Shown here: piece after piece, positions 16,018 to 48,700 of the stretch
How the letters are laid out: every line of letters begins with the position of its first letter
Position numbering within the stretch: the stretch's first letter is position 1
NCBI GenBank assembly: GCA_051294905.1
Contig: CM119371.1
Span: forward strand, 38,566,001-38,630,000
Source: Botryllus schlosseri
Lineage: Eukaryota
Length of the DNA: 64,000 nt
Direction of reading: 5' to 3'
The notes under the pieces: model-generated
Database searches by the model: none
What the model saw: only the letters and a program-made list of their open reading frames with translations
Told to the model about the DNA's origin: nothing
Translations under genes and position numbers: made by a program

Positions 16018-16019
<2 letters not shown>

Positions 16020-16052
<33 letters not shown>

Positions 16053-20053: not shown

Positions 20054-23000
20054 GTCTACAGCGAAATGAGTCGCCCTCGAATGACAAGTGCGCGGTGAAT
20101 TCGTGATCCATATCTATCGTACAGACGGGCAAAGCATCAGTACGACAACAGATCGATTCAAGTTGTACATCATGTACAGCATACAAAATTAATATCCCTC
20201 GGTAAATTACATATCATTTATAGGCACTGGTATGATTACGCTTGACCAGACGTGAAGCAGTAAAAGCACCCCATCATAAATACATTGTTCGGATGGGACT
20301 GTCTGTCCTTATGGAGACGCTAGAACGCGGTATAGGTATGGAACAGCCACATCTGTTGCTTGCACCGAATACTAGGTGCGTAATACCGGGGGTTAGCACG
20401 TTGATGTGAGCAAAATTGAGAATCATCTATTTGTTTAATGACTTATTATATTCATAATGTTACGTTATTTAGGCTAATCTATGTCGGGTCGCCTAATACA
20501 AATTTCTACTACGACATTCATTCTGATTCTCGGTATGACTCGAAATGACACACATATTTAAAATAATAACAGATACATTGTTTGGTTGGGACTGTCTGTC
20601 CTATATGAAGACGCTAGAACGCGGTAAAGTGTGGAACAGCAGTTGTTGCTTACACCAATCACTAGGTACGTACTACCGCAAGTTAACACGTTGATGCGAG
20701 CAAAATTGAAAATCAGCTATTTCTTTAATTACTTATTATATTCCTAATGTTACTTTATTTAAGTTAATCTATGTCGGGGGCGCCTAATACCTATTTCTAA
20801 TACACGACATTCTTTCTGGTTCTCGGTGACGGTAACACTTCACCGATTCAATCTATCCGTAGTATGATGCTGCAAATATGCTCGGCGGTGTTGGCATAAC
20901 ATGTGTTGAGGATATGTTACGGCACACGTGAGCACAACTGATTGTCTGCAGCGAAATTAGTCGAATTCGAACGACAGTGCGTGGCTGCCGAGGCAATATA
21001 TCCTTAGTATGATATTGTAAATATGCTTTGAGGTGTTGGTATAACAAGTGTTCAGGATATGTTACGGTACACGCGAACACAACTGATTGTCTATAGCGAA
21101 ATGAGTCGCTCTCGAACGATAAGTGCGTGGTGAGCTCGCGATCGATATATATCGTACATACGGGTAAAGCATTAGTTCGACAACTGATCGATTCCAGTTG
21201 TACATCATGTACAGCATACAAAAATAATATGCCGCGGTAAATTGTATACCATTTACAGACACCGGCATGATTACGCTTGACCAGGCGTGAAGCAGTAAAA
21301 GAACCCATCATAAATACATTGTTTGGTTGGGACTGGCTGTCCTAAGACGCTAGAAAGCGGTAAAGGTGTGGAACAGTAGTTGTTGCTTGCAGCAATTACT
21401 AGGTACGTTATATCGGAAATAAACACGTTGATGCGAGTAAAATTGAGAATGAGCTATTTCTTTAATTACTTATTATATTCTAAATGTTACTTTATTTAAG
21501 TTAATCTATGTCGGGGGCGCCTATACCTATTTCTAATACACGACATTCTTTCTGGTTCTCGATATGACTCAAAATAACACACATACTTATAACCAGAACA
21601 GATCATTTCTCCTTACTATTTAAGTCTACAACAAAGCAAGAGCAAGTACGACAGTATGCAACAGACTACAAGCGTCACTATGCACAGCCGAACGTATGGA
21701 CACCTAAAACACGCACCTGGATCCCACCGATCAGGAGAAAACTTTATTGACGTCACGACCGGCAATTATTCCTATGCCCCACCGTACACGAAATCGAGTC
21801 AATCGCGAAACGACAAGTCAACCAGGGTGGCTTGACAGGCAATTATTTCCAAAGCCCCGTCACAAAATTGGACCACAAAACCATAGGTAAGGGCGATTTG
21901 TCGGCAGGCAGCTATTACCAAGCCCAGTCGCGTACGACCGAAGTCAGCTGTAGTTTCGTGTCCTTGTCCAGAGGTCAAGCGGGGCAGAATAAATCATGAG
22001 TGGAAAAGTACAAGTGGAATTACTAATCAATAAGTTTCACGTCTGGCCAGAGTACAAAAGGTCAATCGATATTTTGGAAGCTGATTACGTTCAACATTTT
22101 CGCAAACCCCAGGATAAAGGCAGGCAGAATCAGGAGGCGAGTGGAAAAGTACAAGTAGAATGACTCAAGTCTCATGTCTGAGTACAAAGGTCAATCCAGA
22201 TTCTTTGTTCGTTTTCTCTCCATCATTAATTATTCCCCCTTTTTGATTGCCGCACACAGGGCCATAAAAGTATTGCTGCAAAATTGAGAATGAGCTAATT
22301 CTTTAATTACTTATTATATTGATAATCTTTGTTTGTTTAATATAAATTGCGAGTGGGCGTCGATCGCACATTACTTATACTACTGTTGATCTATTCGAAA
22401 TTTATAATTTGGCACTAATTCACATATTTTTATTTTTATTCAAATTTTCGTAACTGTCGGAATCAGAACTTTATCGTAGCTGAGACAAGTCGAAGTGAGA
22501 ACGGCACCGTGGCGTATCCATCGTTGTTTTGTGGACTGAGCGCCTCCTTCGAGTCCCTCTTCTCCGTTTACAGAAGTCATGAAATTGCTGATAACACTGG
22601 TAAACACAATTTTTGTTGACTTTGATTAGACAATCGATTTCGACTAACTTTAGGGCACTGAATTCAAAATTGACTTTCGTTTTTCTCTATAACGTTAAGT
22701 TTTTTCGGTAGACTTGGCACCCACCCCATTGTGTCACAACCCACATAAAATTACTACTTTTAATATTTTGTGTTTATTGTATAAAACGTTTCCAAAGCCA
22801 CAAGCATTCGAAAGTAAATCACTAGACTCTAAATATACCAGGCGTGGTTAAACTTTTCAGCTCGCGGGACATATTCAACATCTGAATCCAGTTGCAGGCT
22901 GCATTATAGTATAATCGGAATTATAAGGCATCAGCGCCGAATTTTTCTTTTTTCATGGGGTGGCGGCAGGCACGTAGTCAGGGGTGTCGAAACCCCCTCC

Positions 23001-24318
23001 TTTTGACACGCAAAACCCCGTCCTTTTGAAATGAGCATTCTGACGCTAATATTCGGATGCAATTCAACAAGCCGTATTCTTAATGTTACGCGGGGCCGCG
23101 ACCAATAAACGAGATTTATCTGTGCACGCATATCGCATCGCACAATGTAACACCACGCAATCTTCCGCTGAGATGATTGCGATATTAGGACATTGATTAT
23201 CGCGCGCTCGGCATTCGTCGCTGGACTGTGCAATGAGCATTAACACGGCGCGACAATTCTGGAACACGGAAGACAGACAAGCATTATGATTACAAACACG
23301 CCCGACTAATCACTAATTATCCCTCACTGCTAACACAATGTTTTTTATTTTATTTAGTATTTAGTATAGCTCGCATTGTGACAATCGGTTGCTGAATAAA
23401 GCATCGATTTTGACTGAATTGCTGCATTTTCCGATTTACGTTCCCAAAGCATAATTGGATTAATATTATGGGCACTGAAATAAATTCCAAATAGCAAGCA
23501 AACACAACGCTGTTCAACTTTGCAATCCGAGAATATTTATCACAAACATGGTTCACAAAATATTTTGAACGCTGCTTGAAGTGCTTGTTGCGATGCAGTT
23601 AATTCATTTTAATTTGAAAAGGGTGAACGTATATTTCTTCGCCAAATCGCGGTAGGAGATGGTGTATCTCATAGCACACGGTGAAATCTACGTTTCTAAC
23701 AATGAGGTCGAATTTGTATATCTAATAAAGATCGTTAGTTTGCTGAAATCAGCATCAGTACGCTGTGTGAAATACATAGTAGTGATCAATTTATCGGACT
23801 TTAAAGTGGGCCGGCAAGGTTGCGCTGATAATAGCGAAAAGTGAGTAAGTAGATGACAAAATATTATGAAGTAAAAGTAGAAGTAGTGAAATTAAGATAT
23901 TATTGAGTAAGTACCAGAAGTACTATATGAGTACTTCGAAAAAGTAGAAGTACTTCGTTACTGCAATTAAAGAAACCGTTGACGCTTCCAAGCAGTCATC
24001 AGCTTTAAAATCGATTGAGTAGACTAAAAACTGAGTTAAGCTTGAAATCTTCACTGAATACCTAACGCTTTCTCGAATTGAGCTAGACTCAGTCTATGTT
24101 CAGTTTAGCACGACTTGAGTTTGCGATGCAGACGTGTCTCTGAATATGGGATTAACGATAATCAGCAGCCACTTGTAACAAAAACAAGACAGTATAAATG
24201 GCCATACTCGTTTCAGCAGCATACTACCCTGCTCGCATGACTGGCATTGAACGAGGAGAATTACATACGTTTCTGAATATATTGTACAGAGAACGTAATA
24301 GAACACAACCAGTCGCGA

Positions 24319-25798
24319 TCAAATGGTCATGTGATATTGTATCCACTCACAATACGATTGGTCGTTCGTTACGTCGGCGTAAATTGCTGGAGATCCCGTA
24401 CTGCAATCATCAGGTATTCCTATGGCAATTCCGAGAAGTTTGTGGGTGCTGGCATATCCGTCGTAAAGTGGACCACCTTGATCACCCTGCATACCGGAAA
24501 CAAAGTTCGAATATGAGACATGTCGCCTACTCGCTTTGTGCAGGCTTCAAGCACAATACCGGACTTACCATGCAGACATTCACTTCTGCCATTTGACTTC
24601 TTGCACACAAGTTTGCTTCATCCGTCCCAATGCCACAGTCGTATGATTCCCTGAGCGGCACGCTCCCGTATCTCAGGGTAGCGGAGTACGCTGACTCTGA
24701 GCTCGTCGAATATCCCCAACCAGCGATAGTAGCGGTGTCTAGGTTAACCACATTCTCTCCGATGGTCGCAGATTGAACAGGCCGCTCGTCATGCTCTACT
24801 GCGATCTGTAGAAGAGGTTAATCAAGGACTATGTTGCTGATATAGGCTACGTGATATGGATAGAACTGGGAAGTAATAAAGTAATCAAGTTTATAAGATA
24901 GGCCGAAATGTTAATATGGGACGTTGCCTGCTAGGGACAATCCTGATGGGAGGTCAGCATGCAGCAAAGTGGCTAATAACAATTGGCTACCCGAAGATAC
25001 ATCATCATTCATAAATTACCCTAAATTTTCGAACACGATTCCTCCATCGACTCTACCGGGGACTATGATCACATGGGCTGAGAAGGTATACATATTTGAA
25101 AATAATATGTGAAACTATTAATATTATTGACCAAGTTCATTCGTGAGTCTGAAAGAAATTTTCACTTCACCCTACCTTAACCAGTCCCAGCAACTATTCA
25201 TAACATTACCACTCTCGACTTCAGTGCCTATAGAAAGCGGGTTATGAAAAAGCAGATTAATCAGGAGTTCCACGGTAATGGCCATGTACAGTTTTACATG
25301 GGTATTTATTTGGCATCCACTTAGCTCATTACGACCATGCCATGTAATGTAGCCGTAGGTTACATGAGTAATCGAAATGCGGTCGTCAATTGCAACAAAG
25401 GCAGTACCTGATCTAGCTCATATAACGAGAATATGAGATTTTAGTTAAAATAACTCGATAGGTTTAACCGCAGTCAATTATTTGGAAACAGACGATGGCA
25501 ATATTAGGAATCTGTGCTCGTCAGACCCCCCCAAAAAAACACTTCTACTTTGTCTGCCTGAAACGTGTGTTGATTAGCCAGTGTAATAATAATCATACTA
25601 GAGTTACCTTTTTATAAATATCTGTGGTTGAAATAACTGACCAAGGTACACTTGATTAGGTTACTCACTTCTAGCGTCAATATCGCAAGATCTCTGTTCA
25701 CAGCAGGAGGTCTCTCTACCATATATTCTGTTCCGCTAACTCCATCGCGAGCTACGGAACCCGCGAACACCTTCCACTGCGACCTTTCGATGGCGTTA
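24319..25798 (-). CDS. Serine protease homologue, exons 3-5 only (inverted paralogue of 45714-49951; possibly a truncated pseudogene)
   Basis: Exons 25798-25669, 24805-24569 and 24486-24319 with intact GT/AG sites and open frames: NAIERSQWKVFAGSV...RDLAILTLE / IAVEHDERPVQSATIG...AGWGY...CARSQMAEVNVCM / GDQGGPLY...YCEWIQYHMTI*. No closely matching exon 1-2 found upstream; homology to the + copy stops at about 25938. Confidence 0.7.
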
Positions 25799-28142
25799 CT
25801 GACAATTTGAAAGACACAGTCGGAAACATTTCAATATGGCTATGAAGTCATTGACCTATTGTGACTATGCGAGCTACTAAAATGTCAAAATAATGTCACC
25901 GTCAACAACCGAAAGAATGCGCTTCGCACCAGTCTGCAGCACAATACGATTCCAAATCTGACATCGCAACGATCGTTTGCTCATTATAACGACGTTTGAG
26001 CTGCATTTTTGCATTTCCCGATAAAAGTTGGCAAAGCCTTGTTAACGTAATGAATAGCGCACTTTGCGGAGGAATGACTTTCAATTCGCAGGCATACAGA
26101 AACACACGGTCATATTTCGCGCTCAGAATTATTTTGTAAACGATTATGGGCGCAAATACAATTTAATTAAGAGAAGGAGAACGTGAATTCGCTCGTCTGG
26201 TCGATAGAGAAATGTTGTTTCTCATCGCAAGCGTGTCGAAATCGACGTCGTAAACGAGGTTGCTTCGATTGTCTGATTACTAGTCACGGATTACAATTTA
26301 TTGGAGGCGTTTTAAGCACTACTACGTGGTCGCCGACGAAGATGCGTATTCAAATATTCGCGCGTGTATCGGTTAATGGTAATGGTTGGCATTTGCGCGC
26401 TATCACGGACTCGCTAATTGACAGCGCTGACGATTTAAAATCGCAGACGGCAAGCGTTTATTCTTATTGTATGGGCTGGCCGCTACCCCATAAATGTGTA
26501 ATGGGGTGTCTGTGCCACCACGTCACCCCGTAACTCAGCACCTATGAATTATAAGCCAACTTTAATTTGATTATATAGTGTCCAAGTAGACATGGAGATA
26601 ATAAATAGATATGGATTAAAATAATTTTAACACTGATTTGATGATAACGCACATGCGCCAGAAACATTAACAAGATTTTATAATGTAGCCATCTTCTGTC
26701 AATTCTTCAAAGTTAGGGATGGATTTAGGTTGTACCGATTCTGAGGACAGGATGGAAATTGGAATATGTGAGCAGCGATCGTCTCATTTATATGCTGATT
26801 TTGCATTTGGTTGAGCTTCATCAGAACGCACAAACCTGACACATCATAATAACCAGCATGTTACCTTTAAGTACGTGTTATCAAAAGGCTTACTGTGTTA
26901 AACTAGCCTTCTTCATGTTCTTTTGTGAAGACGGTTTCAACATAATTTACTGTTATACAAACATTTGAATAATTAGGTGTATATTTTCATAATTTGATAC
27001 ATTGCGCCGATAGTCAAGATGTTTGGATTCAAGCGATGTTTCAAATTGTAGCAACGAATTCATTACAATAATGTCATAATATTACAAGTAAAACATACTG
27101 CGCTACCCCCGACACCGATACAGAAGTACCAATCAGTTGAATCTTCATTGATGGCAAACATTCATATGACACTTTTCGCTTTTAGTATTGATTTGAACAA
27201 CTCGTTATGATTGTATTGAGGCCGTAGTTACAAACAATTAGCACCCAACTGCGCATATGAAACGAATCCACCTAACACACGTGCGAAATGTATTTTTCAA
27301 GTACAACACTGAACGTCGGCGTTCTAACTCAAAATCACAATTGAGATCGGAACTAATATATTCCCGTTTTGCGTTTCTAGTGTGTTTAACAACAGAAACG
27401 TTTTAAAATGCGTGGGTCCCGACCCCATATCTGGCTACCGCACCAATAATAAAATGAAAAAGTGGAATATTATGATTATAACTCAATCGATATCATGATG
27501 AAATATCTTAGGAAAAAGTTTAACCAAGTCTCTCTAGTCATTAGAGTTGTACTAAAGCATTTTATCAATATTTCTATTAAATCTCTCAATGACTTCGCGG
27601 GCCGCGCAAAATGTCTGCACGAGCCGCATGTGGACCGCAGGTCGTAGTTTGCCCAACCCTGAAATAAACATTTGCACTGCTTTATTTGGTTGATTTAAAT
27701 TGATATTGCTTCTGCAGGACAAATAATGTGTGAGTTTCAGCGTCAAAATTTATGCTAATAACTAGGGATGGTGTGAACCTCTTAAAGGTTCAGGCTCGTG
27801 TGAACGCGAACCTTTTTAAGAGGTTCTCTGTGATCACGAATGTGATCCTCATGGCGTCGCGTGACGTCCTATTGCCAATTCCAACCCTATCTTTCAATGA
27901 AGTGATAGCCTATATTAATGTACGCGATACCTGGCGACGCCTTGGGCCACATATTGCAACACGACTGAAGTACATATTGGCGTTTTAAACGTCGCTAAAT
28001 GTATCAAATGTGGCAATCAAAGAATATAATATACTGTAATATACGCTTATCCCTTTACGGTCCAGGCCAGACCGGGCAATGTATTCGGTGGCTGATACAT
28101 TGATATTGAGCAGAGTGTAAAATGGGTTTCTATACTGGCTAC

Positions 28143-28647
28143 TAGGGCTGGGCACAATGATTCGAGTACTCGAATCTGAATCGAGAATTAATTTTAATGA
28201 TTCGAGTCGAGTAGTAAAAGAAGATTTTTTTCGAGTACTGAAATTATACGCTCCCCGCAACTGAAAGTTATTTTACTAACAAGAATTCTCGTTTTGATAC
28301 TATTTTCGGGTGAAACCTTGATTGGTCGTGTCGCGGCATACGAGAAATAGTACAAAGCTACGAACGTTACTGGAAATAACACATTTCCGAAGTCATGATC
28401 CTTCCACAACATTGTCAGGAAGTGCAATGAAATCGGTTATGGTCGAAAAATACCGAAGTATCTCTAAAATGACGGATAACAGGCATTGTGTTCTTTGTGG
28501 TGGCAGAAAAGGTACATGTTTGAACTTTGATATAGTATATTCTGTTGTGACGTCATAACGAGCGATACTCGAATACTCGACTCGACTCGAACCGTAAAAC
28601 GTGATTCAGAATCGAATCACTCCGGGACTCGATTTTGGCCAGTCTTA
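28143..28647. mobile_element. hAT-type MITE, family A
   Basis: Homologous to 8383-8891; TSD CTGGCTAC / CTTGCTAC. Confidence 0.8.
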
Positions 28648-28709
28648 CTTGCTACCGATAGTAGTTATATAGATCGGTCGTGATGCGCCATTGTGTCTTA
28701 TGGGTGCAC

Positions 28710-28900
28710 CCGACCGGTGCCTCGAAACTCGTCTTGAACCGGTGACCCTTTTCGGTATAGGATCACTCAACCGGTGCAAGTATAGCCATCTCTCGACCGG
28801 TAACCCTTTTCGGTATAGGGATCTCTCGATCGGTGCCTGGAAACTCGTCTTGAACCGGTGACCCTTTTCGGTATATGCATCTCTCGATCGGTGCCGTGGT
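28710..28900. repeat. Subterminal tandem repeats rich in ACCGGT
   Basis: Repeated ACCGGTGCC..GAAACTCGTCTTGAACCGGTGACCCTTTTCGGTATA units; mirrored at about 38670-38950 with ~90 bp extra. Confidence 0.8.
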
Positions 28901-31900
28901 GGTAATTCGTACTTTCGAGTCTCTGGTGATTCGCTACATGTTCTTATGGGTGCGGTCATGAATCGCACTTTCGGGTATATACATCTCACGACCGGTGTTG
29001 AAGAAGTATCAGGTATGGTAAATAGTCACGTGATTGACTCTTAGTTAATGTGTATACCTCAAATTATTATATATGTCCGATTCGAGTTAATCCCAACGTT
29101 TGCGGTGAATGCGACTTCGATATATCGGTATTCTTATGGGCGCGGCGATGATTCGTACGTTCGTTGATAGAATGCTAGCGGCATGTCGTACTTTCACCAA
29201 AAAGGGTGTGAAATAGTTTGCTAAATCTAGGAATCAGTCGCTTGGTAATTAGTTTATCACGGAGCCGGCGTAGACGGTGACTCGAATACCAACAATAGCC
29301 GCGTTCACAAACTAACACCCCAAAAAGGTGTGAAATATTCTCTACAAGCGCTTGCAAGATAACACATCAGAATAGCCATCTCTCATTGTTTGATGTTACA
29401 AAGGTAGGAATTATGCACAAGTAATATTTTGATAATAAGTTTGCCACAGAGCCGGCGTAGACGGCGATTCGAATATCAACAATAGCCGCGTTCACAAACC
29501 AACACTTCAAAAACGTGTGAAATAGGTTACAAATCCCACGATCGCTCACAAGATAACACCAAAGACATAGCCATTTCTCGCGTCTTGTCATTACATACAT
29601 CCCAATCGCTACAGTGTAATATGTCGGTGGTTGTTACTATCAAGTAATAAGTAATGAATAACAGTACCAGCGCAGACCGTGATTCGAAAACCAACAATTT
29701 GACACTTGCACGCGATCGCTATATGTTTTGACACTTCGGAACAGTCGTTGACTTTGCGTGATACAAATCATGAAAATATTCAAGCAATGTGTCAATTTGT
29801 CAACTTGAAATGAAACTTACTACACTACTCAAGTTGATTCTTATCTGAATGTGTTAATTCGGTACAATTCTAATTATTTTGAGAAATCTTTTCGTGATCT
29901 TTTGGTTCGACCGTAACCTGAATATTACTGACGCCGACTTTCAGCCACAGCGAATTATTCGCACATTCCGCGCCGTCGTTTTCATACCTATAGAATCAAT
30001 ACCAACTATAACTCTACAAGAATCAAGAATCACAAGTATGTGCATTATACAGTTATTGTCTTTATTAACTTGAAATCAAACTCTTAACAAAAACACGCGT
30101 CTTATCACTCGTCAACTCTATCATGAAAATCCTCGAGTCCTTATTATCAAAAATGTTTTAGCGCGGTGTCGGAATCCATTCGCGGGATGTACTAAAGGTA
30201 AATCCAGATAATCCAAAATGAAATATTTGGACTTTGACATAGTCTGAATTGAAATATATTGACAAACATGACTACCAACTTTGATCCAGTCACATTTCAA
30301 GATCATACTTTGAAACAATCCTTGAAACTTACAACTCTATTCACGACTGAGTTTTCCGTTTATCAAATAGAGTTTCAGTGAATACCATCGCGATATTTTA
30401 ATGTGTTACCACACACAATAGAATCAATCAATGAAATAGCACCTGTTGTAAATATTTCTAACTTGACAACCACTTGTGCATACCGCGATCGACTTGTGAC
30501 GCGATGAGTCAAATCGGAATATTTCAATCTATTTGTCGAAACCTTGAACAAACTATCAGGTTATTTTTTGTTGCAATCGAGTGAACGGAAATAGTATTAC
30601 GTCTCGACATCTTACCATCTTACCATATTCAAAGAGTCAACCACAAAAACATTGTCAAGTAAATCCGTTTGTAACTTACCCGACCAACTCAAACAGTATC
30701 AGTATGAAAAACAGCCAAGCATACACGAGTCCATACCAACACTAAAACCTAAAATCCATAACAAGTTCGGTTGTATTCATATCCCTACACATCTTTTTTA
30801 TTCAACTTGAAAAGTCGTTACTATTCTGTAAGATAGAGGAATTACTACGCGGTATATTCTGCAAGACAAACTAATTACTACTCGGTATATTTTGTAAGGC
30901 AAACGTAATTACTCTTCGGTACAGGGGACTTGAGCTTAACATAATATGTTTGAGTATACGAGATTTGAAAGGTCGAGCAACGTAGTTAAGAATTCATTTC
31001 TTATACGATCAAACGCCGGTGTTACATTGAAAGTTATCATGCTGTAAACATAGGGATTGACACATTGATTTGACATATGTAATAGTTGATCATGACTTGA
31101 TTATTAAATTATTCGCGTTAATTAGACCCGGTGTTGTGGTAAAGGTTATTATGACAGCAACAAACTTTTCCCTACCGTGGTTATTAACATATTGATTTGT
31201 AAAACTATACTTGTCTGAAATGTTCTTGATTTGAAAGATATTCCGTGTTGGTACAAATCACTCTGCGTATTACGGATATCAGAAAATATTTTTACAAATG
31301 TAGTTGTTTCCAGTAACCAAGACTAAAGATGCAACAATTTCGTTATTCAAACATTGAACATCCGATGCAAAACGCTCTATTGGTCAAATTCGCAACGGGT
31401 AATTGAAACGACTAAGTGTAGAGTCAGTATATCACAATGGCACGTCGTTACTATCGAATCCAGCAATTGATACGATTTATTGTCGGGATTTGTGACAGCG
31501 CATTGAAACATACACAACTTACAGAGTGTGAAAATATCACTTTGGGTATCGAGTACCGTTCGAAGCGTGCGATCAATACATAATTCGTTCGCACTCTCTA
31601 AGGCGTTGTGAAGTCTACAGATTTACACTTCAAAACTTTGATCAACACAGAAGCAATTTGGAATATCTTTACTGGACGCATCCTATTCTACTAGACTTGA
31701 GTAATATACAAAACTCATAGCATTAACAAAATCGCAATAGGCGCTACACTGAAATCTACAAAATGTGTTTGTATTGTTACTCAAAGTAGTGATCATAAAT
31801 TATCATTTGAATAAGTAATTGTAATCATAAAACCAAACTTGCGAAAGTCATTACCATAACAAAAGAATATTGTAGGTTGCTTGTTAAATGTATGCCGGAA

Positions 31901-32871
31901 ATATTTGTAGAACGCTCACGACCAAAGAAATTGGAAATTTTCCCATTGTCATCCGTCAAAGTCAATGTCGTCACAATACTCAATCACTAAAAAAACGATA
32001 TACTTGTACGTGATTGAATCACCGGTAATTAACTAGCTAAATCAAACCCCTAAGAAATTTCACTCACTCATTAGATATTAAACAGTGTCACCTAATCGGT
32101 GTAGATCGTTTTTCTAAATGCAAATAATACCTAGCCAACAGAAAACAATTTTCACTCACCCGGTAATGAAACCAAGTGGTTGGTCTTCGTTCGATATTTT
32201 GTTTGTGTCAAATACTTTGCAATGAACACATTTGAGTGGTTGAGCTTTACATCATCAAGCTGTCATTTGTAAATCGAGATTACATCCGACTCGTAACTCT
32301 ATCGTTTAACTAGCCGAGTTGTATGCACAGTTTGATATTTTGGTCATTTAGTGATTGCTGAACATACCAAACGATGCACACCCACCTCCGAAATGCTGCG
32401 TTGATCTTAATTTCCATCATCGTGATATCGAAGTACATTTCTTTCGAATTCGTAACAACCGACTATGACATGATAAATTTTTGACAAGTTTACTTAGAAG
32501 GTTTGTTGCATATCGCGAAAAATAATATACCACTCATATTGATACTGTTACTCAATTGATCGATATTTTCAAACGAGTAAAATTTATTACTTGAGTTTCT
32601 CCGCTTACTATATGTAAATGTAAACTCATCCATCTTTCAAAACCACAACGAACAACGATAAAAAGCATGCAATCAAACACAACATGTTTTACTTTTGTAG
32701 GACACTAATTATTATCTCATTTCATACTAATTCATACTTTTGATGGGTTGCATCAGCACAATTGAATATGCGATTACACAAATGTATTGGAGTTGTTGTT
32801 GGTGTATATTTTGTCGCTATCCGTTGTAACAATATACAAAAATATCAAATTGTCAGGTGTGTTTGTGAGAT

Positions 32872-33243
32872 TTCAAAATGAAAATGGTATTGTTACCCAG
32901 GTAAAAGATAGATTTCCAAGTGAAAACTGTATTGGTACTCAGGTAAATGATAGTTTTCCAAACGAAAAGAGTTTGTTACCCAGGGAGAAAATATATTTCT
33001 AAAAGAAAATGATTAGTTACTCTAGGTAAAAGTATTTTTCCAAGTGAAAATGATATTTTTACTCAGGTAAACGACGGACTACCGAGTGAAAATGGTTTGT
33101 TGATCAGAGAAAAAATATATTTCCAAGCGAAAAAGGTTTGTTACTCTGGGTAAACGTCAGATCTCCAAAGGAAAGTGATATGTTTAGTCAGGTAAACGAT
33201 GGACTGTCAAGTGAAAGTGGTAATTTTACACAGGTAAACGTCG
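32872..33243 (+). repeat. Minisatellite, nine 41-42-bp units
   Basis: Approximate consensus TTCCAAGTGAAAATGGTATTGTTACTCAGGTAAACGATAGAT, located in the element spacer. Confidence 0.85.
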
Positions 33244-36200
33244 TGGGCTCAGTGTCGTTGGTCTTGTTAAACGTAGCTGTCGAGTTTACAATATACTTGT
33301 CGTGAGTATACAATTACGAAGGGAGAGAATGAAATTGCTATTATGAGTGCCAGAAGGTTGTTGTATGTAGATTTGACAGTAACCCTATTATTCACACATG
33401 ACAAACACAATCATTGCCATTAACTAACTTGCTCGGTCTCGATCAATGCAAAAGAGATGATTCGTTTTTTGAAACCGTAGCGAAGACCACATGTAAATCT
33501 ATGCGATAGACTTCTATCTCCTGACATTCAGTCGTGTCGTTTGCATTTTAATACGGACCTTAATGTATGACATGCACACACTAACGCCGTAAACAGAAGT
33601 CGATGATTTTGATTAATAAAAATATTTCTTGACTACATCGGAATGTCTATGTTGTAGGAAGGATATACTTTTATGGAGTCGTGTGTTTAATGAAATCGAT
33701 TGGTTACAAGTATGTGTAGGGGAAATAAAATTTATTTTTCTGTATGTGACAGTTTGTGACGGAATGAAAATAGATTCGTGGTTTTAATTGAATTGTGACT
33801 GTGTTGTTTTAATGTATGCTTCAACATGGAGTCTTGACGCTGAACAACAACTCGATACACTAAACAATTTGTCACTGGTGTGCAAAGGGTTAGGAAAATT
33901 TTAATACAGCTCCATCTACTGGTTGTTTTGTTGTGAGGACAATCATGCGATGACTCGGCACTTTTCGGTAGCAAGTAGATTGATCTCTGTGAAAGATGTA
34001 GGGACCGTGACTAGAAAACATATGTACTCTGTTGTTGGAGTATCTGGTTTATTGTTATGACATTGACAGAACCCTCGGGAAGTGGGTATGCTTTTCTTTC
34101 ACGAAAGTTTACACGACTCCGTTGTAATGAATTTGTGTTAACTAAACTTGGATGGATACCGCAATTGTGCTCGACTTACACATGATATTCGCATACTGCA
34201 CGCATACAAACTTTTGTGAAAACAACTCTGATGTTTCTGTTCGTACTAGTTCTGTGTTGAACTTTCTGATTATTAAGATACATGAACAACCATTCAGACA
34301 ATAAAGTTCTTGTGACATCGAAACAGTTTGAAAGCGCCACCAATCATTGTACAGGTTCGTAGCATGGGAATATCGAATATTTTCGTTTGTCATGAATATC
34401 TTTCTTATACACTTAGTATGAAATGAGATAATAATTAGTGTCCTACAAAAGTAAAACATGTTGTGTTTGATTGCATGCTTTTTATCGTTGTTCGTTGTGG
34501 TTTTGAAAGATGGATGAGTTTACATTTACATATAGTAAGCGGAGAAACTCAAGTAATAAATTTTACTCGTTTGAAAATATCGATCAATTGAGTAACAGTA
34601 TCAATATGAGTGGTATATTATTTTTCGCGATATGCAACAAACCTTCTAAGTAAACTTGTCAAAAATTTATCATGTCATAGTCGGTTGTTACGAATTCGAA
34701 AGAAATGTACTTCGATATCACGATGATGGAAATTAAGATCAACGCAGCATTTCGGAGGTGGGTGTGCATCGTTTGGTATGTTCAGCAATCACTAAATGAC
34801 CAAAATATCAAACTGTGCATACAACTCGGCTAGTTAAACGATAGAGTTACGAGTCGGATGTAATCTCGATTTACAAATGACAGCTTGATGATGTAAAGCT
34901 CAACCACTCAAATGTGTTCATTGCAAAGTATTTGACACAAACAAAATATCGAACGAAGACCAACCACTTGGTTTCATTACCGGGTGAGTGAAAATTGTTT
35001 TCTGTTGGCTAGGTATTATTTGCATTTAGAAAAACGATCTACACCGATTAGGTGACACTGTTTAATATCTAATGAGTGAGTGAAATTTCTTAGGGGTTTG
35101 ATTTAGCTAGTTAATTACCGGTGATTCAATCACGTACAAGTATATCGTTTTTTTAGTGATTGAGTATTGTGACGACATTGACTTTGACGGATGACAATGG
35201 GAAAATTTCCAATTTCTTTGGTCGTGAGCGTTCTACAAATATTTCCGGCATACATTTAACAAGCAACCTACAATATTCTTTTGTTATGGTAATGACTTTC
35301 GCAAGTTTGGTTTTATGATTACAATTACTTATTCAAATGATAATTTATGATCACTACTTTGAGTAACAATACAAACACATTTTGTAGATTTCAGTGTAGC
35401 GCCTATTGCGATTTTGTTAATGCTATGAGTTTTGTATATTACTCAAGTCTAGTAGAATAGGATGCGTCCAGTAAAGATATTCCAAATTGCTTCTGTGTTG
35501 ATCAAAGTTTTGAAGTGTAAATCTGTAGACTTCACAACGCCTTAGAGAGTGCGAACGAATTATGTATTGATCGCACGCTTCGAACGGTACTCGATACCCA
35601 AAGTGATATTTTCACACTCTGTAAGTTGTGTATGTTTCAATGCGCTGTCACAAATCCCGACAATAAATCGTATCAATTGCTGGATTCGATAGTAACGACG
35701 TGCCATTGTGATATACTGACTCTACACTTAGTCGTTTCAATTACCCGTTGCGAATTTGACCAATAGAGCGTTTTGCATCGGATGTTCAATGTTTGAATAA
35801 CGAAATTGTTGCATCTTTAGTCTTGGTTACTGGAAACAACTACATTTGTAAAAATATTTTCTGATATCCGTAATACGCAGAGTGATTTGTACCAACACGG
35901 AATATCTTTCAAATCAAGAACATTTCAGACAAGTATAGTTTTACAAATCAATATGTTAATAACCACGGTAGGGAAAAGTTTGTTGCTGTCATAATAACCT
36001 TTACCACAACACCGGGTCTAATTAACGCGAATAATTTAATAATCAAGTCATGATCAACTATTACATATGTCAAATCAATGTGTCAATCCCTATGTTTACA
36101 GCATGATAACTTTCAATGTAACACCGGCGTTTGATCGTATAAGAAATGAATTCTTAACTACGTTGCTCGACCTTTCAAATCTCGTATACTCAAACATATT

Positions 36201-37576
36201 ATGTTAAGCTCAAGTCCCCTGTACCGAAGAGTAATTACGTTTGCCTTACAAAATATACCGAGTAGTAATTAGTTTGTCTTGCAGAATATACCGCGTAGTA
36301 ATTCCTCTATCTTACAGAATAGTAACGACTTTTCAAGTTGAATAAAAAAGATGTGTAGGGATATGAATACAACCGAACTTGTTATGGATTTTAGGTTTTA
36401 GTGTTGGTATGGACTCGTGTATGCTTGGCTGTTTTTCATACTGATACTGTTTGAGTTGGTCGGGTAAGTTACAAACGGATTTACTTGACAATGTTTTTGT
36501 GGTTGACTCTTTGAATATGGTAAGATGGTAAGATGTCGAGACGTAATACTATTTCCGTTCACTCGATTGCAACAAAAAATAACCTGATAGTTTGTTCAAG
36601 GTTTCGACAAATAGATTGAAATATTCCGATTTGACTCATCGCGTCACAAGTCGATCGCGGTATGCACAAGTGGTTGTCAAGTTAGAAATATTTACAACAG
36701 GTGCTATTTCATTGATTGATTCTATTGTGTGTGGTAACACATTAAAATATCGCGATGGTATTCACTGAAACTCTATTTGATAAACGGAAAACTCAGTCGT
36801 GAATAGAGTTGTAAGTTTCAAGGATTGTTTCAAAGTATGATCTTGAAATGTGACTGGATCAAAGTTGGTAGTCATGTTTGTCAATATATTTCAATTCAGA
36901 CTATGTCAAAGTCCAAATATTTCATTTTGGATTATCTGGATTTACCTTTAGTACATCCCGCGAATGGATTCCGACACCGCGCTAAAACATTTTTGATAAT
37001 AAGGACTCGAGGATTTTCATGATAGAGTTGACGAGTGATAAGACGCGTGTTTTTGTTAAGAGTTTGATTTCAAGTTAATAAAGACAATAACTGTATAATG
37101 CACATACTTGTGATTCTTGATTCTTGTAGAGTTATAGTTGGTATTGATTCTATAGGTATGAAAACGACGGCGCGGAATGTGCGAATAATTCGCTGTGGCT
37201 GAAAGTCGGCGTCAGTAATATTCAGGTTACGGTCGAACCAAAAGATCACGAAAAGATTTCTCAAAATAATTAGAATTGTACCGAATTAACACATTCAGAT
37301 AAGAATCAACTTGAGTAGTGTAGTAAGTTTCATTTCAAGTTGACAAATTGACACATTGCTTGAATATTTTCATGATTTGTATCACGCAAAGTCAACGACT
37401 GTTCCGAAGTGTCAAAACATATAGCGATCGCGTGCAAGTGTCAAATTGTTGGTTTTCGAATCACGGTCTGCGCTGGTACTGTTATTCATTACTTATTACT
37501 TGATAGTAACAACCACCGACATATTACACTGTAGCGATTGGGATGTATGTAATGACAAGACGCGAGAAATGGCTAT

Positions 37577-37989
37577 TATTATTATTATTATTATTGGATA
37601 CGACAGTGGTGCTTTTAGCCAGGTTAAGGCCTTGTGCTCCACGACATTGCAATTACACGGACAGTACACAATGAATTTCATTTTTTCGGGTCTCTGACGT
37701 TCTTCCACTCTCGCTTTATCGTCGTATCTTTGCTTCACTTTTTCATTCTTCTTGCACTCTCACAGTCTCTTTCACGCACACTTCATCAGTTGATAATCGT
37801 CTCTGTTGCTACCGAATTATAGCTCGGCTCACTGTAGCTGGGCTTTTAATGTCACTGACTAGCAGTGAGGTCGGCGATGAGGAGCCCATAGAACCTCCGA
37901 CACATAGTAATTAGTCCGAACCGGGATTCGAACCACCACCATTGGTGTCGTGACGCAGGCGCTTAACCCACTGCGCCACTCGCTTCCCC
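37577..37989 (-). mobile_element. tRNA-derived SINE inserted in the right arm of the Polinton-type element
   Basis: Head GGGGAAGCGAGTGGCGCAGTGGGTTAAGCG..GGTTCGAATCCC (A and B boxes); (AAT)n tail; 14-bp TSD CGAGAAATGGCTAT; absent from the left arm (empty site near 29575). Confidence 0.9.
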
Positions 37990-40900
37990 CGAGAAATGGC
38001 TATGTCTTTGGTGTTATCTTGTGAGCGATCGTGGGATTTGTAACCTATTTCACACGTTTTTGAAGTGTTGGTTTGTGAACGCGGCTATTGTTGATATTCG
38101 AATCGCCGTCTACGCCGGCTCTGTGGCAAACTTATTATCAAAATATTACTTGTGCATAATTCCTACCTTTGTAACATCAAACAATGAGAGATGGCTATTC
38201 TGATGTGTTATCTTGCAAGCGCTTGTAGAGAATATTTCACACCTTTTTGGGGTGTTAGTTTGTGAACGCGGCTATTGTTGGTATTCGAGTCACCGTCTAC
38301 GCCGGCTCCGTGATAAACTAATTACCAAGCGACTGATTCCTAGATTTAGCAAACTATTTCACACCCTTTTTGGTGAAAGTACGACATGCCGCTAGCATTC
38401 TATCAACGAACGTACGAATCATCGCCGCGCCCATAAGAATACCGATATATCGAAGTCGCATTCACCGCAAACGTTGGGATTAACTCGAATCGGACATATA
38501 TAATAATTTGAGGTATACACATTAACTAAGAGTCAATCACGTGACTATTTACCATACCTGATACTTCTTCAACACCGGTCGTGAGATGTATATACCCGAA
38601 AGTGCGATTCATGACCGCACCCATAAGAACATGTAGCGAATCACCAGAGACTCGAAAGTACGAATTACCACCACGGCACCGATCGAGAGATGCATATACC
38701 GAAAAGGGTCACCGGTTCAAGACGAGTTTCCAGGCACCGATCGAGAGATCCCTATACCGAAAAGGGTTACCGGTCGAGAGATGGCTATACTTGCACCGGT
38801 TGAGTGATCCTATACCGAAAAGGGTCACCGGTTCAAGACGAGTTTCGAGGCACCGGTCGAGAGATCCCTATACTCATAAGGCACCGGTCATGTGGAAGGG
38901 GGGTCTGAAAGGGTCACCGGTTCAGGACGAGTTTTCGCGGCACCGGTCGGGTGCACCCATAAGACACAATGGCGCATCACGACCGATCTATATAACTACT
39001 ACCGATATTACCTCATTAAGAAGTCATACAACAGTATCCAACTCCCCACTCGTACGGATTTGGTTTTAATGATGCAGTAAAGATATGGAGTCAAGATTGA
39101 ACCCGTACGCCTTCTCGAATTCTTACATCAGAAAACGATGTCAATCTTATTGATTGGTTGAATAAGCATCCTTCGCTAACTCCGTATTTCGCTTGTGATG
39201 TTGTATGATTGCGGCTCAAGCTCGCAGCAGAGAGTCACTGAATATTCAGAAATGGAAAGCTGGAAATTTTGAGCAAACTTTTGTAACAAAGCAAGTAAAA
39301 CTTTTGAGAATGTCAAGGTGCATGCTCGTTTGGTGTTGATTTCTAATGCTGCCAGGCCATGCATAGAGTGGGCCGCAGTTGAAATGCAATAAATTTGAAC
39401 CAAAGATGTTATAATGAAGTGAAAATTGCAATATATGAAAAAGCTTCACAGTGCAAAACCTACAAAGCCTGTGAATGTTCTAAATTTCCGAGGTTCAAAT
39501 ACAGAACACGAACGTGAACGTAATAACTTCTGTGGGCTGTCTCGTTTGACACTCGAGCAATAGTCAGCTAACATATGTGAGCTCCAATGTACTCTAATAT
39601 CATACCCCCATAATCTTCAAATATTGAGGGGTGCTTTCTCCTGGCCCATCGATGACTATGCAAAGGGTTTCCGGAAAATTAGTAAGATATTTAGGCTTTT
39701 CTGAATGTCTGCAGTCCGACATGAACATATGGCAATGGCACATGCGTATGAGGGTTAGATTTGTATTGTCTGACCACTGAGGAAACACAAGATTTCAAAG
39801 CTGACATATATGATCCAATCGCAATCAGGTCTGTGATATTGCTAATATCAATGTTTCTGTATTATTCTCAATGTTTCTGTATTATTCACGAAGACTAGCT
39901 TAGTATGCAATTGTTACTGTACTTAAGACGCTGCCATTTCAGAGATGCCATACTTTCGGATCCTTGTAGATATACCAATAGACATTTGCCATTCACTTGA
40001 GTTGTATATCGGGATTTCTATCTACTCCAGCAACCCATGGTAGTAGTAATGCCAGTATCACGGCAATAAACAAATCTACCGAAAGTAGCCCTACGATGAA
40101 AACGCCGTTTCTCGTGATCGAAAGTGAGATATCTTAGCTCTTTTTCCAAGTATAATCTTTTCTCAATTCGCAAGAAAGCGATAATTTCCGAATATTTCTC
40201 TCTGTCAGATCATTTAACGTTGATTGATGGACTACTCTACTTTCTGAATCATCTTCGATTTCAAAAGTTAACAATTTATTCGCTCAAAATTGTTGCCCAG
40301 TGCAATTGCACATTTATAAGTCCAATGTATTTTTTCATATTGGGGAAAACACGGAGCCTCCAAGGCAATTAGGGGTCTACGTCGGAGATAGTATGCGATT
40401 TTATATCGAGTATCAGGCTTCGAATCTAGCATTCAAGTATCATTCATTATGACGTCACAACAGTATGAATGATGTGGAAAGTTAAATAGGCTATGTAACA
40501 TTTAGGCGACCACAAGACAAGCATATAAGGCTTAACCAAATTTACTTTTGAATGCCATTTACATGAGCACCTGTATATTTTCAATAAGTTACTATTCACT
40601 TGCGAGAGGATTTTGGGAGTGCTGAAAAGGAGATAACATGATATCATAATATTACAATGTATTCTGAAAATTACAGTCGCAGACCTCGTTTAGATTTCGT
40701 GAAATCTACATAGGACCGACGACCGACTATGAATATAGATATGGACCGGGGCCTACGAAATTCACGGCCTTATCTGGTACATTACGCTTGCAAAAGCTAA
40801 CAGGCCGATGCTCAAAAAACAGAAGTTGGCGATTATGCGCAATTTCGCGTCTCACTGCGAGACGCTTCACCTTAGATAAGCTGAATGTATTCGTAGAACA

Positions 40901-43030
40901 GGTCAAATTATTACCTTACCGTCACAAAGTGACAGGAGACAGCCCTGCAGATGCAGTTATCCACCGATTGCAGAATTAGGCCAAGTAGTGAGAAAACGCC
41001 GACTTGCTCATGCAAACCATTTTATTGCATGGTAAAATCAATTCAAGCACGTGAAGAAGAATTGGTGCACAACTGTGAAAAGTACTTTATTTGAAAATTA
41101 TCTCGCCATCCTTTTATAGTGGCCATTCAAAATAAGTGGAATAATTTCCATAAGCTAATTCTTGTCAAATCTTTTTTTCGTTAGCCGGTGATGTCTTCAT
41201 CCAAACTCCTCCACAGGCCCGTGTCAAGATGGAAAGGAGCGGAAAAGACATTCCCGTCTTTTTAGTCATACCTGGAATACGACTTTTCGTCATGTCAGGG
41301 TGACGTAATTTGCTACCGCAAATGCTATTATTCAAAAATTGTCAAAATATCAATTTGGCAGAGATCGGCATGTAATGGTTGGAATCGGGTGGAATTCAGT
41401 GTACATCTTTTTTATGCAACCTGACGATTTAGTGACGTAGCAAGCCAGACAGCTTTTGTTCACAATGATAGAACAAATTTCTTATGTTATATCTCATGCA
41501 ACTAAATAGATTCGTCATCTGTTGTGGTTGCAATTTCAAATTTTAGGGAAACCATTGAAGAAATCTGAGACACGGTGTCGATCGCACTATCGATTTTGAT
41601 GTTGTATTACCCGTTGCATTCTGAGCCGCACATTACAGGCGCGAGCAACAGAGAAAGATGATGCAGCCTATTAAGAAATACCTAGCTGTAATTTGCTTCT
41701 AATATCCTCCGACTATACCCACAATAACTGACAGGAGGTCAAGAAATGATAGCATGCAACAATATGATTGGCCCACCGGAAGATGCATCATCATCTATAA
41801 CTTAACTTTCGGAGAAACCCCCTCCGTCCAGTCTACCGGGAAATCTGATCCGATAGGGCATAAACTGAGAAATTAGAAATAATATTTGATGGTTATATGT
41901 GCAACTACTTAAATTGATGACGAAATTTATTAATGAAATGCAATAATCTAGTGCGGAAATATTAATTCACTACGGCTGGTGCGAGACAAAGTGGCGATCA
42001 GTGGGGCGTTGTAAGTCAAACAAGATTTTACAAATGCCGCACAACGAAAAAAGTTAGGGATACGCTTCCATTTTCCATTAAATTTATTTGAATTATTGCG
42101 CGTTGGAAAAAGTAATAAATATGAACGATTTTCATCCGCACTCCGTTTGTCATACGCACTTTGTTTTTTCATGGCACACGTGCCTACCATCCGGCAGATT
42201 GAAAAGCACTGGATTGTATCATATTCCATCCACCACTAATAAGGGCGTTGTATTGCACAGATAAGGCAAGAGTTAGTTTTATTGTGTAAGTTGTCAGTTA
42301 GAAGCTATTCTGCTAAGTAGACAGCTTGCGCTAATAAATCCTAACGAACGCGATAATCCACTTCCTTGCTGAACCAACCATATTATCTTCGCAATCGCCA
42401 TTATTAGACATCGCCTATTATACTTGTTACTTTTTGTTCCCGAGACGAAGTGATTGAAATCTGTCCGTGCGCGTGTTGGACAATATGGTGCATATTGACG
42501 GGATATCACGAACGCGCTAATAGGCTGCTGTTGGACTCGCCAGCAATGATATGGTAGCGTGTGATAGGAGGCCCACTGGCTACGCGCCTGCATAATCGTT
42601 TCGAAGTCCATCTACAAGCGATAGGTAATTGGTGATATTGGACAGTTGTGAGTCGGCTCATTTGTCACGTGATCGATCCTACATACCAATGCAAATTTAG
42701 AGATCTGAGCATATGGTTTCAAGTATATAATTATAATTCATCCGACTAAGAACACCATAAGATTGCGATAAAATGAGATGGTAGGAAGGCGAGAGAGCGA
42801 GCCACCTTGTGGCGAGATAGCGCAGTGGAATAATCCGCGGATGCAACACCATGGGTTGCGGTCGACTTCAAGATTCCTATACGTGAGTGTTGGAGGTTTA
42901 TATAGGATCCTCCTCGCCACCTCATCCGCGTAGGCGGTATCTTACAAAAAGCCCAGAAGTGTGCCGTGCTATAAGTCAGCAGCTACGGAATAAAAATGAA
43001 GAATATCGGCCTGGTGAAATGACCATAGTA

Positions 43031-45713: not shown

Positions 45714-48700
45714 ATGTTCGCGATAATCGTCTTAGTCTTTGCAGCCCTCTCAGGTAAGAATTCAGCGAAATTGTTAACTAAATTTCATCACGTCTCTTAA
45801 TCGTTGCAGTTGCCGAGGGTGCGAACACCAGAATCTATAACGGAGCGTATGCTAGCAAAGGGCAATTTCCATCGATGGCTTATGTGTCTTACAGAAATAA
45901 CTTCAAATGCGGATGCGTCATGATTCGAACAACAAGCAAATTCGCCTACGCAAAAGCGATTACGTCCAAATCCTGCGTCGATTCGTAGTAATTACACTTT
46001 TTCTTCATATTTATGCTTGGAAACTTAACTTGCGTCTTTACGACAGTGGAATGGTTTGCTGCTAGTCTTTCTCAATTTTCAGAGTTGTGGAAAGGGGGGA
46101 AGGAAAAATGACTATGTAACTCAGCTATAAATTTTAGCATTATGGATATTCATGATAACATGTGCAGTCAATTAGACTGATAAGATCCCTATTTGAGGTC
46201 TTCCTAAAATTGCTACGGAAGAACTGTATAATGTGAAATGAGCCAGGTTTGATGTAGGCCTTCAATGTGTACTGTAGGTTACATATATTGCCATTCTTCT
46301 GCTCATGAAAATGACTTCCAATTTGATTTTTGTTTTAGTCCATCCTAATTTGAAATTTATTATGATCATTATTTAATTCCTATGTTCAAATCTGAGTAGA
46401 AAAAGCTGACAAATTTATAACTGTTGAACTTGGAGTTGGAGACGGGGCGTGAGATGCCGGATGTCGAAGCAGGACTGTGGCCTATGTGGAGTTGAATTCA
46501 CCAAAATACGGTACCACTCTCTTCAGTATAGGTAAAGTGGTTCTCAACCTTTTTCACCTAGCGGATCGGTAAATTAAAAAAATTGTTGGACCGATGGACC
46601 ATCGAAAATTGAAATCAAACCAAAATGTCACGTATAAAACCATTTTTTGCATGTCAATAGAGTGAGTTGTTAGAGTTTTGTTCGTAATTAAATATTACAA
46701 TCTTTCGCTCCCGTCGATTAATAGACTACGGCACTGCGCCAACTCGAATAATATTCGTCTCTTCCACAAAATTTTACGAAGAAGCGTTTCGAAGTGGGAC
46801 CAGGCACCTTGACGTGCTACCTTGCTCATTTTTCACTACCATCAGTCGAACTATGTATGCAATACGCTACACGAAAACACCTGGAAACAGCGATACGGTT
46901 TATCAACAACAAAATGAATCATTCGACAACGAATGATCGTGTGCAAACTCCGCGGTTAAGCGAGTCAGCTCGCACTTGTCGCCCGCAGGTCGTCACCTGA
47001 AATGGCTTGAACTTCAAGTTGAATTGAGGCGGGGAATTAGTTTTTTAGGCATGCGAAATAAGAACCAAAATAAGTTGGCGGGTCAGGCCAAGAGATTGAA
47101 CTATATTCCGTAAACGATTTTATTTCTGAATAGGGACCAAAGAATTACATTGTTAGCTATAGTGGATGTGTTAAATTTTGGCTATGAGAAAGTGTGGGTT
47201 GATTTTTAAAAAATATAATGATCCATTCAGTGACAATATTCAAAGCAATGCCAAGCACGAAACACTTTTCACTTACTTAAATAACATTTTTCCATACCCT
47301 TTTGATACGGATTCGTCAAAAAGTACTTGGGATAATATAACGCTGGCCAGGGTCCCGCGTCTATTTGTATTTTTACCACGCCTTTTCATTGTTGCTGGGT
47401 GTCCGCTGCTCACGTGCACTGATTGACATGTTTCACGGATTATGGACTGGAAACGCATGACATAACAATTTAAATTACAGACCGGTGATTCGAAATGCAA
47501 AAATGGCAACAAAAACTATCTGGAAACCGTTGGTTTTAACTTTAATTGTCTTGGTATACTTCGATATATTTCCTGTATTTTGAATATAGATTATACGACC
47601 TTTACGTGGACTGCGTAATCACTGTACTGATGAACGAACAGACTTCAAAGAAAACGTGTTTCCCGTTCAGTTTATGCAGTCTTTGGTTTTAGTTCACATA
47701 ATACGATTCGAAAATAGGTTTTATGTTCTAAATTACAGTCTACTTTTAGCAGACCAGCCAGAATCACGTTGCGGGCGGAAGTTGGCCCGTGGGTCACACT
47801 TTGCCCAGGTCTGAGTTAAATCCAACATGCATTCAGGCCTAATGTTACATCATGAAGTTCTGAATATATTTGATTTTAATGTTTCATTGAAAAGCCATCA
47901 ATATTTTTCAACTTGAAATTAAAGTATATTTTTAAATACCCGGCGTACAGGCGGTTGTGAACCACTGTCATAGCCTACTGGCTGGTCCCGGTTGGAGTTT
48001 ATAATGCTCCGACTCCGTCCCCGTCTTTAACCACAATAAAGTTCGAAAGAAATGTTCTCATTAGAATAAAAAGTGTCGTTGCAAATACAGAAGTTACCAC
48101 GTTTTTTTTGTGGGTGGCACCTTCAAAAGCTTACATTTTGATTTGGACAACCATCTATTTCAAATTAGACAATTAGTTCAATTCATTCGGTAGTGATATT
48201 TGAAAATTTACGGAAAAAAGAAGCCAGAGTTCAATGAACAATCTACTGGGATTAGAACTAGTTGCAATTAAAGTCTCTGAATTCCATGTCCGAAAGATTT
48301 TGGTGCTTTGAAAATGTTTGAAGTCGGTGGCGTCAAAGTGAATCGACTCAGCAGACTGGTGCGAAGCGCATTCTTTCGGTTCTTGACAGTGACATTATTT
48401 TTACCTTTTAGTAGATCGCATAGTCACAATAGGCTCATGACGTCATAACCATATTGAAATGTTTCCAACTGTGCCTTTCAAATTTTCAGTAACTCAATCG
48501 AAAGATCGCAGTGGAAGGTGTTTGCAGGTTCCGTAGCTCGCGATGGAGTTAGCGGAACAGAATATATGGTGGAGAGACCTCCTGCAGTGAACAGAGATCT
48601 TGCAATATTGACGCTAGAAGTGAGTACCATAATCCAGTGTACCTTGGTGAGTTATTTAAATCACTGATATTTAAAAAAAAGGTAATCAACACATGTTTCA

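Follow-up and report, generated by a model that had tools for sequence, protein, structure and literature searches.

The window, that is, the whole 64,000-nucleotide stretch of Botryllus schlosseri DNA that was analysed, contains a palindromic element of 10,341 bp at positions 28660-39000, which begins with AGTAGT at its 5′ end and finishes with ACTACT at its 3′ end. It is made up of two inverted arms of unequal length on either side of a spacer, and is enclosed by a short direct duplication of the target site (Table 1). In a global alignment the two arms fall into three blocks of 51, 856 and 3,164 bp, with 0 mismatches in 4,071 columns. The alignment is interrupted by two indels, of 90 bp and 427 bp, and in each case it is the right arm that has the additional letters. 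The arms account for a paired share of 79% of the length of the element, or 83% when the two indels are left out, and the spacer has no inverted repeat inside it.

Table 1. Coordinates of the element, its target-site duplication and its internal features, numbered from the first letter of the window
Feature	Position	Strand	Remarks
Left target-site duplication ACCGAT	28654..28659	+	Direct sequence comparison
Left arm, 4,071 bp, AGTAGT start	28660..32730	+	0 mismatches against right arm
Three spaced TCTTATGGGYGC copies (28696, 28942, 29132)	28696..29143	+	Mirrored in right arm
58-bp tandem repeats, subterminal, 3.2 copies	28711..28895	+	ACCGGT cores
33-bp tandem repeat in arm	30822..30913	+	Mirror at 36222-36321
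Left arm/spacer junction, 8-nt direct repeat TTCATACT on both sides	32721..32738	+	Likely new fold or deletion point
Spacer, 1,682 bp	32731..34412	.	High-copy family sequence, not unique host DNA
42-bp tandem repeat in spacer, 8.9 copies	32868..33238	+	67% matches
Longest ATG open reading frame, 105 aa	34142..34459	-	Spans right junction; frame lost in diverged copy
Right arm, 4,588 bp, ACTACT at end	34413..39000	-	
427-bp insertion, right arm only	37577..38003	-	SINE body and one copy of its 14-bp target duplication
90-bp diverged subterminal unit, right arm only	38860..38949	-	Lies between 11-nt direct repeats
Right target-site duplication ACCGAT	39001..39006	+	Direct sequence comparison

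Termini and coding content

The termini and the target-site duplication are each unlikely to have arisen by chance: a direct match of 6 bp between the flanks has a chance of about 3 × 10⁻⁴, and so does the presence of AGTAGT at a given end of the element. The direct repeat of the flanks runs two bases further inward, to give CTACCGAT on both sides, and the chance of two such extra matches is 0.07. A duplication of 8 bp with asymmetric ends is formally possible, although less parsimonious than one of 6 bp with symmetric ends. No empty-site paralogue of the insertion was found within the window, where the 172 bp to the right of the element are without a copy.

The initial annotation had described the AGTAGT...ACTACT ends, the perfect ACCGAT duplication, the lengths of arms and spacer and the identity of the arms save for two indels, and all of this agrees exactly with the direct comparison and the global alignment. 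The span it gave, 28654..39006, is accurate in its coordinates and takes in the target-site duplication as well as the element itself. Its description of the element as almost entirely a hairpin stands as regards the hairpin, the extent of which is the 79% given above. The termini and duplication had also been called typical of Polintons, in agreement with the signature reported for vertebrate Mavericks (PMC8097293, in part). The element displays three features of Mavericks/Polintons, namely the (AGT)2//(ACT)2 end motif, the 6-bp target duplication and terminal inverted repeats (TIRs).

The coding content is poor. The longest open reading frame with an ATG in the element codes for 105 aa. In the left arm and spacer, stop-free frames reach 122 aa at most, as against a median of 97 and a 95th percentile of 138 in 100 shuffled sequences. 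Sixteen frames were selected from the element plus its left edge; all stayed below the Pfam cut-off, and none had a PHROG match better than E 0.02; Rfam and ARAGORN made no call within the element. By the open reading frame, Pfam and PHROG checks, no gene for pPolB, integrase, ATPase, protease or capsid was found in the element, as had been noted at the outset from the sequence, and no P-type transposase was found in it by the open reading frame and Pfam checks.

The 105-aa frame, which lies at the right junction, has a best Atlas score of 0.79, a low recognition, and three matches among protein representatives (P0001, P0002 and P0003). P0001 and P0002 are repetitive proteins that match over short stretches only, and were discarded as relatives. 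P0003 was likewise discarded as a protein homologue, being a frameshifted copy of the same DNA. Because the reading frame is not kept in this diverged copy, the 105-aa frame is probably not a gene, to judge from the sequences compared. A small spacer gene, for which the cysteine-rich look of the frame might speak, was rejected, as there is neither a Pfam match nor a conserved frame.

Long inverted arms that contain tandem repeats and surround a non-repeated centre, with recruitment of internal sequence, are also known from the Galileo foldback elements (PMC4168063). The present element could accordingly be a Galileo- or FB-like derivative of a cut-and-paste transposon, with arms grown from internal sequence, movement by a transposase and a merely coincidental AGTAGT. 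The long TIRs of Galileo extend by tandem-repeat expansion and by recruitment of internal segments (PMC4168063), the element has subterminal tandem repeats of its own, and the 8-bp reading of its duplication would be compatible with such an origin. However, Galileo has a transposase of the P superfamily and duplications of 7 bp, rarely 8, and the portions of that source drawn on here report no Maverick end motif (PMC4168063), whereas the element has a 6-bp duplication and the exact (AGT)2//(ACT)2 ends which together form the Maverick signature (PMC8097293, in part); the 8-bp reading, moreover, requires asymmetric ends. We therefore regard a foldback origin as improbable.

Differences between the arms and age of the insertion

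The larger of the two indels is a SINE that only the right arm has acquired. It has a tRNA-like head, recognised by eye and not called by ARAGORN or Rfam, and a tail of AAT repeats. Three diverged copies of the head are present elsewhere within the window, and pieces of the 3′ body, 199 bp and 286 bp long, occur with 0 differences in the sequencing runs X4 and X10. Both indels had been recorded in the initial annotation, which left the larger one unrecognised as a SINE insertion. The smaller indel is a 90-bp unit bounded by 11-nt direct repeats, and on account of these repeats the left arm has likely lost it through slippage. This difference sits only 51 bp from the end of the element, so that a strict re-copying of one arm from the other needs a later slippage event to account for it.

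The strongest argument against an artefact of assembly comes from the SINE insertion. Arms that are perfectly identical over 4 kb might be the product of a chimeric fold-back read, or of polishing that had equalised diverged arms, and no read or contig among those listed spans the element. A chimeric fold-back would, however, mirror the flank, whereas the flanks here are unlike and carry a direct 6-bp duplication. The SINE is confined to one arm and has its own 14-bp duplication, and the 90-bp indel lies at an 11-nt repeat. Polishing could mask substitutions but not build this anatomy, and only the perfect identity of the arms is exposed to it. The element is thus very likely real, and an artefact of assembly appears quite improbable.

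The history of the arms can be followed through letters in which this copy differs from its relatives in the sequencing runs. Among the 40 differences listed (308 further ones were recorded), 12 fall at arm positions. In run X1, the share of depth without the listed other letter is below 13% at 11 of these 12 positions, below 1.3% at nine and below 0.02% at three. The three rarest letters, at 34748, 35017 and 36985, have an X1 depth of 4.6-13.1, which is the level of low-copy pieces; at position 35703 the letter is not rare in X1 or X4. All 12 arm positions are mirrored in the left arm. Arms that decay separately from a family master would carry such letters in one arm only, and hence one arm has been copied from the other at a time when these letters were already present. 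The arms were thus equalised within the lineage of this copy, with near-private letters in both, most likely at its last replication.

Equalisation could have occurred either by replication or by conversion in place. For the latter, the same element and helper would be involved, and what keeps the arms identical would be gene conversion or hairpin-mediated repair within the chromosome, not a replication cycle. The near-private letters shared by both arms fit conversion equally well, and a perfect inverted repeat of 4 kb is a plausible substrate for it. Nevertheless, we favour replication, because the 427-bp SINE and the 90-bp indel still set the two arms apart, and because the arms of an older palindrome nearby have diverged. 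This palindrome, the second in the window with AGTAGT ends, shows a difference of 3.6-4.5% between its arms and separate insertions in each, which indicates that arms do decay after insertion here; the comparison is a loose one, as it concerns a single case of different sequence without a target duplication. No target duplication was detected for the second palindrome, and no convincing DNA similarity to the element, the one match being of 60 bp with an E value of 0.002. On balance, maintenance of the arms by conversion seems to us rather unlikely.

For the divergence of the arms, the 95% upper bound is 0.07%. On the reading that the arms were re-copied at replication, identity within this bound makes it likely that the insertion is recent.

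Family abundance and the two junctions

The element does not stand alone. Of the 24 public sequencing runs listed, 20 contain part of its left arm and spacer; they represent three coded organisms and 10 studies. Positions 32731-40000 served as the reference to which one RNA run and three contig sets were aligned under a 90% identity filter. Run X1, which may be the source sample of the assembly, yielded 131,316 contig pieces on this interval, a count that takes in the SINE and the repetitive right flank: 31,050 of them at 99% identity or above, 47,952 at 95-99% and 52,314 at 90-95%, so that 100,266 of the 131,316 are 90-99% alike. The summed X1 depth over spacer and arm is about 0.9-4 × 10⁵, as compared with 5.6-25.8 for eight X1 pieces listed, a summed contig depth being not a copy number. 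Such a depth, together with the tens of thousands of pieces at 90-99%, implies many diverged copies and a spacer that is itself family sequence: arm and spacer are high-copy sequence of a family with many diverged copies, which are 90-99% alike or more. The element had been proposed to be a recent copy-back derivative, mobilised in trans by an autonomous Polinton or virus; the identical arms accord with its being recent, but it belongs to a large and diverged family and is not a one-off.

None of the contig pieces listed spans the whole stretch, and no junction joint, flank joint or terminal loose end was seen among them (2,680 further rows were recorded). No autonomous partner with these ends came to light in two contig collections: terminal and subterminal patterns of the element had no match in viral_contigs and none in metagenome_contigs. 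A 17-mer with three matches in viral_contigs was put down to chance, the matches having at most 18 identical bases and lying in GC-rich contigs. As regards expression, no RNA run among those listed had a certain match; RNA run X24 covers arm and spacer to a depth of about 5 at most, and near 34172-34266 the rows listed show mostly the letters of other copies.

The two junctions between arm and spacer have different properties. A direct repeat as long as the 8 nt at the left junction was reached by 41 of 20,000 random arm/spacer pairs, while that at the right junction reaches 3 nt. P0003, an independent and diverged record, runs from arm into spacer across the right junction, from 34716 to 34318, in three frames, and the right junction is therefore common to the element and this copy. 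If most copies had two arms and one spacer, the depth of the arm should be about twice that of the spacer. The observed ratio is near 1: three runs gave 0.86, 0.70 and 0.89, and none of the bootstrap ranges extends to 2; the ratio is noisy, being derived from summed contig depths under the 90% filter, and is not a copy number. The right arm and the spacer probably represent one continuous end of 5.75 kb, to which the left junction is a newer addition. This left junction may mark a copy-back template switch, or else a longer palindrome may have lost its central part there, and for both of these the same picture is expected at the junctions and in depth.

These observations also bear on whether the element is a mobile unit at all. 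It might be a dead remnant, in which one end of a Maverick was duplicated in place by a local rearrangement. Only one junction is matched in an independent record (P0003), and no second palindromic copy of the family has been directly seen, both of which would suit a remnant. On the other hand, the clean target duplication around the whole palindrome points to insertion as a unit, arm and spacer are both high-copy, and 5.75 kb without an open reading frame exceeds the gene-free ends of the Mavericks in PMC8097293, as far as the portions of that survey used here describe them. We hold such a remnant to be quite improbable.

Relation to Mavericks and a possible replication cycle

Intact vertebrate Mavericks are 12.7-24.6 kb long, have (AGT)2//(ACT)2 ends and TIRs of 46-1,447 bp, and duplicate 6 bp of their target (PMC8097293, in part). 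The likeness of the element to Mavericks/Polintons (polintoviruses, adintoviruses) lies in the end motif, the 6-bp duplication and the terminal inverted repeats; it differs from those described in the same part of this source in being without core genes, in its size of 10.3 kb, in its 4.07-kb arms and in its 79% paired length. Lacking core genes, it does not qualify as an autonomous Maverick, whereas its ends, its duplication and its many copies fit a non-autonomous derivative.

Derivatives with Polinton ends and without a full gene set, some of them with long TIRs, have been described before. Butterfly polintons include polB-less, cargo-bearing forms and have gene-bearing TIRs of about 2 kb (bioRxiv 10.1101/2025.02.07.637071), and Polinton_CE_TIR of Caenorhabditis elegans consists of 744-bp TIR remnants (PMC11414722). 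In contrast to the element, the butterfly forms keep other core genes and those of C. elegans are TIR remnants, and the portions of the two sources considered here do not describe either as gene-less, near-whole palindromes at high copy. A survey of anoles, in the part considered, reports an apparent absence of non-autonomous Maverick copies. Our search of the literature, the scope of which lay outside Kapitonov and Jurka 2006 and Repbase, found no description of a gene-less palindromic Polinton. Those two are said to contain non-autonomous Polintons, some of them possibly with very long TIRs. The gene-less palindromic form may thus be partly on record already.

An analogy of working, and not of membership, is provided by the adenovirus recombinant SYREC, a palindrome reportedly built from one viral end (the reference is said to be Deuring et al. 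1981). SYREC is helper-dependent (PMC2396429), and its resemblance to the element would lie in this dependence and in descent from a linear DNA virus with protein-primed replication. It differs, going by the part of this source considered here, in being a laboratory recombinant that contains host DNA and has no target duplication, and in not being an integrated, germline-amplified family.

Taken together, the evidence leads us to favour, with fair though not high confidence, a reading in which the element is a recently inserted member of a gene-less, palindromic, high-copy family with Maverick/Polinton ends, for which a helper carries out copying and integration, and in which one arm is re-copied from the other. 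Protein-primed replication, as generally understood, underlies the steps proposed. The protein-primed polymerase of the putative helper would start at the (AGT)2 ends and displace one strand, which could then anneal with itself into a 4-kb panhandle around a loop of 1.7 kb and so yield a duplex origin. One arm would serve as template for the other, and private mutations of the donor arm would consequently come to stand in both. A retroviral-type integrase of the helper would then insert the duplex and generate the 6-bp duplication; Mavericks encode both pPolB and a retroviral-like integrase (PMC6431247, PMC4028283, each in part). After insertion the arms would decay independently, a process that would so far have brought the SINE and possibly the 90-bp loss. 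The shape of the element would be that of a 5.75-kb end, comprising right arm and spacer, joined to an inverted 4.07-kb copy of that same end, with the left junction as the new fold point, produced by template switch or by central deletion of a longer palindrome.

More tentatively, and with somewhat more doubt than conviction, we suggest that animal Mavericks may carry a class of integrating DNA copy-back satellites, that is, gene-less palindromes which replicate by way of a panhandle several kilobases long, have their arms reset in each cycle and give rise to shorter versions by re-folding.

The replication mode of Mavericks/Polintons is mostly inferred from gene content, and a palindromic dependant with private mutations shared between its arms offers a test of panhandle and strand-displacement replication at the level of sequence. 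If the proposal is true, such mutations would be a direct record of strand-displacement replication in Mavericks, the divergence of the arms would provide a clock for insertions in the manner of LTRs, and the family would represent, in DNA, the equivalent of copy-back defective genomes, and one that has colonised a germline at high copy. In assemblies and repeat libraries, inverted repeats of such length and perfection are probably often collapsed or overlooked. What the present copy contributes is a version wholly without genes, a SINE by which the independence of the arms after insertion can be recognised, and evidence for a spacer that continues one end.

Two sets of repeats near the ends of the element are candidates for recognition by proteins. 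The 58-bp subterminal repeats may be cis-sites for helper proteins, and the spaced copies of TCTTATGGGYGC are candidate protein-binding sites. The latter motif has six exact matches, all inside the element, and one further match with one mismatch outside it, against a mean of 0.27 expected by chance.

A second palindrome in the window

The window holds a second palindrome with AGTAGT…ACTACT ends, older than the focal element (the gene-less palindrome at 28660-39000 with Maverick/Polinton-type ends). Its paired arm blocks show 3.6-4.5% divergence around a centre of ~1.4 kb, and extra sequence is present in both arms (see table). No target duplication was found for this palindrome, and DNA comparison with the focal element revealed no convincing similarity.

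When translated, the focal arm weakly matches a 145-bp tandem repeat within the second palindrome, at 38% over 53 aa with E 1.3e-5; the best E of 20 shuffles was 1e-3, and 71/159 bases are identical at the DNA level. The match could possibly be a decayed coding relic common to both palindromes; possibly, it is a product of chance.

Features of the window
Feature	Position	Strand	Remark
Second palindrome	12842-22384		9.5 kb
Arm block	12842-13843		pairs with 22384-21403
Arm block	13844-14516		pairs with 18168-17496
Arm block	15625-15874		pairs with 17500-17249
Left-arm extra sequence	14517-15624		1.1 kb
Right-arm extra sequence	18169-21402		3.2 kb
Translated match, second palindrome	20994-21152	-	inside 145-bp tandem repeat
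Translated match, focal arm	31380-31622	-	
Dispersed repeat copies	28139-28642; 8383-8886; 11251-11500; 51315-51830		~500 bp
Larger inverted duplication	25937-43029; 55568-63734		
2.1-kb repeat	23825-25937; 48351-50458		inverted copies
Self-inverted element, MITE-like	9987-10599		613 bp
Self-inverted element, MITE-like	4131-4384		254 bp
tRNA-Lys(TTT)-like sequence	2598-2670	-	

Surroundings and composition of the focal element

The focal element lies in the left arm of a larger, older inverted duplication, whose blocks are 80-91% identical, which may continue beyond the window end and on which no AGTAGT ends were seen. The right arm of this duplication lacks 27956-39178 (11.2 kb), a segment that includes the focal element. 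The insertion point is just outside a copy of a dispersed repeat (copies ~80% identical to each other), which ends ~11 bp before the left target duplication. The arm 28660-32730 has a CpG observed/expected ratio of 1.38, compared with 1.01 for the spacer and 1.11 for the remainder of the window.

The SINE and other repeats

The 3′ body of the SINE inserted in the right arm (37577-38003) is matched with 0 differences by a 199-bp piece in public sequencing run X4 (depth 540) and a 286-bp piece in run X10, from another coded organism (depth 10), and its subfamily therefore looks young. In RNA run X24 both strands of the SINE head are covered ~800-fold, nearly all of this depth coming from reads that continue into unlike sequence.

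Elsewhere, the two copies of the 2.1-kb repeat are 88% identical, each with a stop-free frame of 132-142 aa; the one frame of the two that was tested had no Pfam match. Two small self-inverted elements are MITE-like. Apart from the tRNA-Lys(TTT)-like sequence, which may be a gene or a SINE head, ARAGORN and Rfam called nothing in the window.
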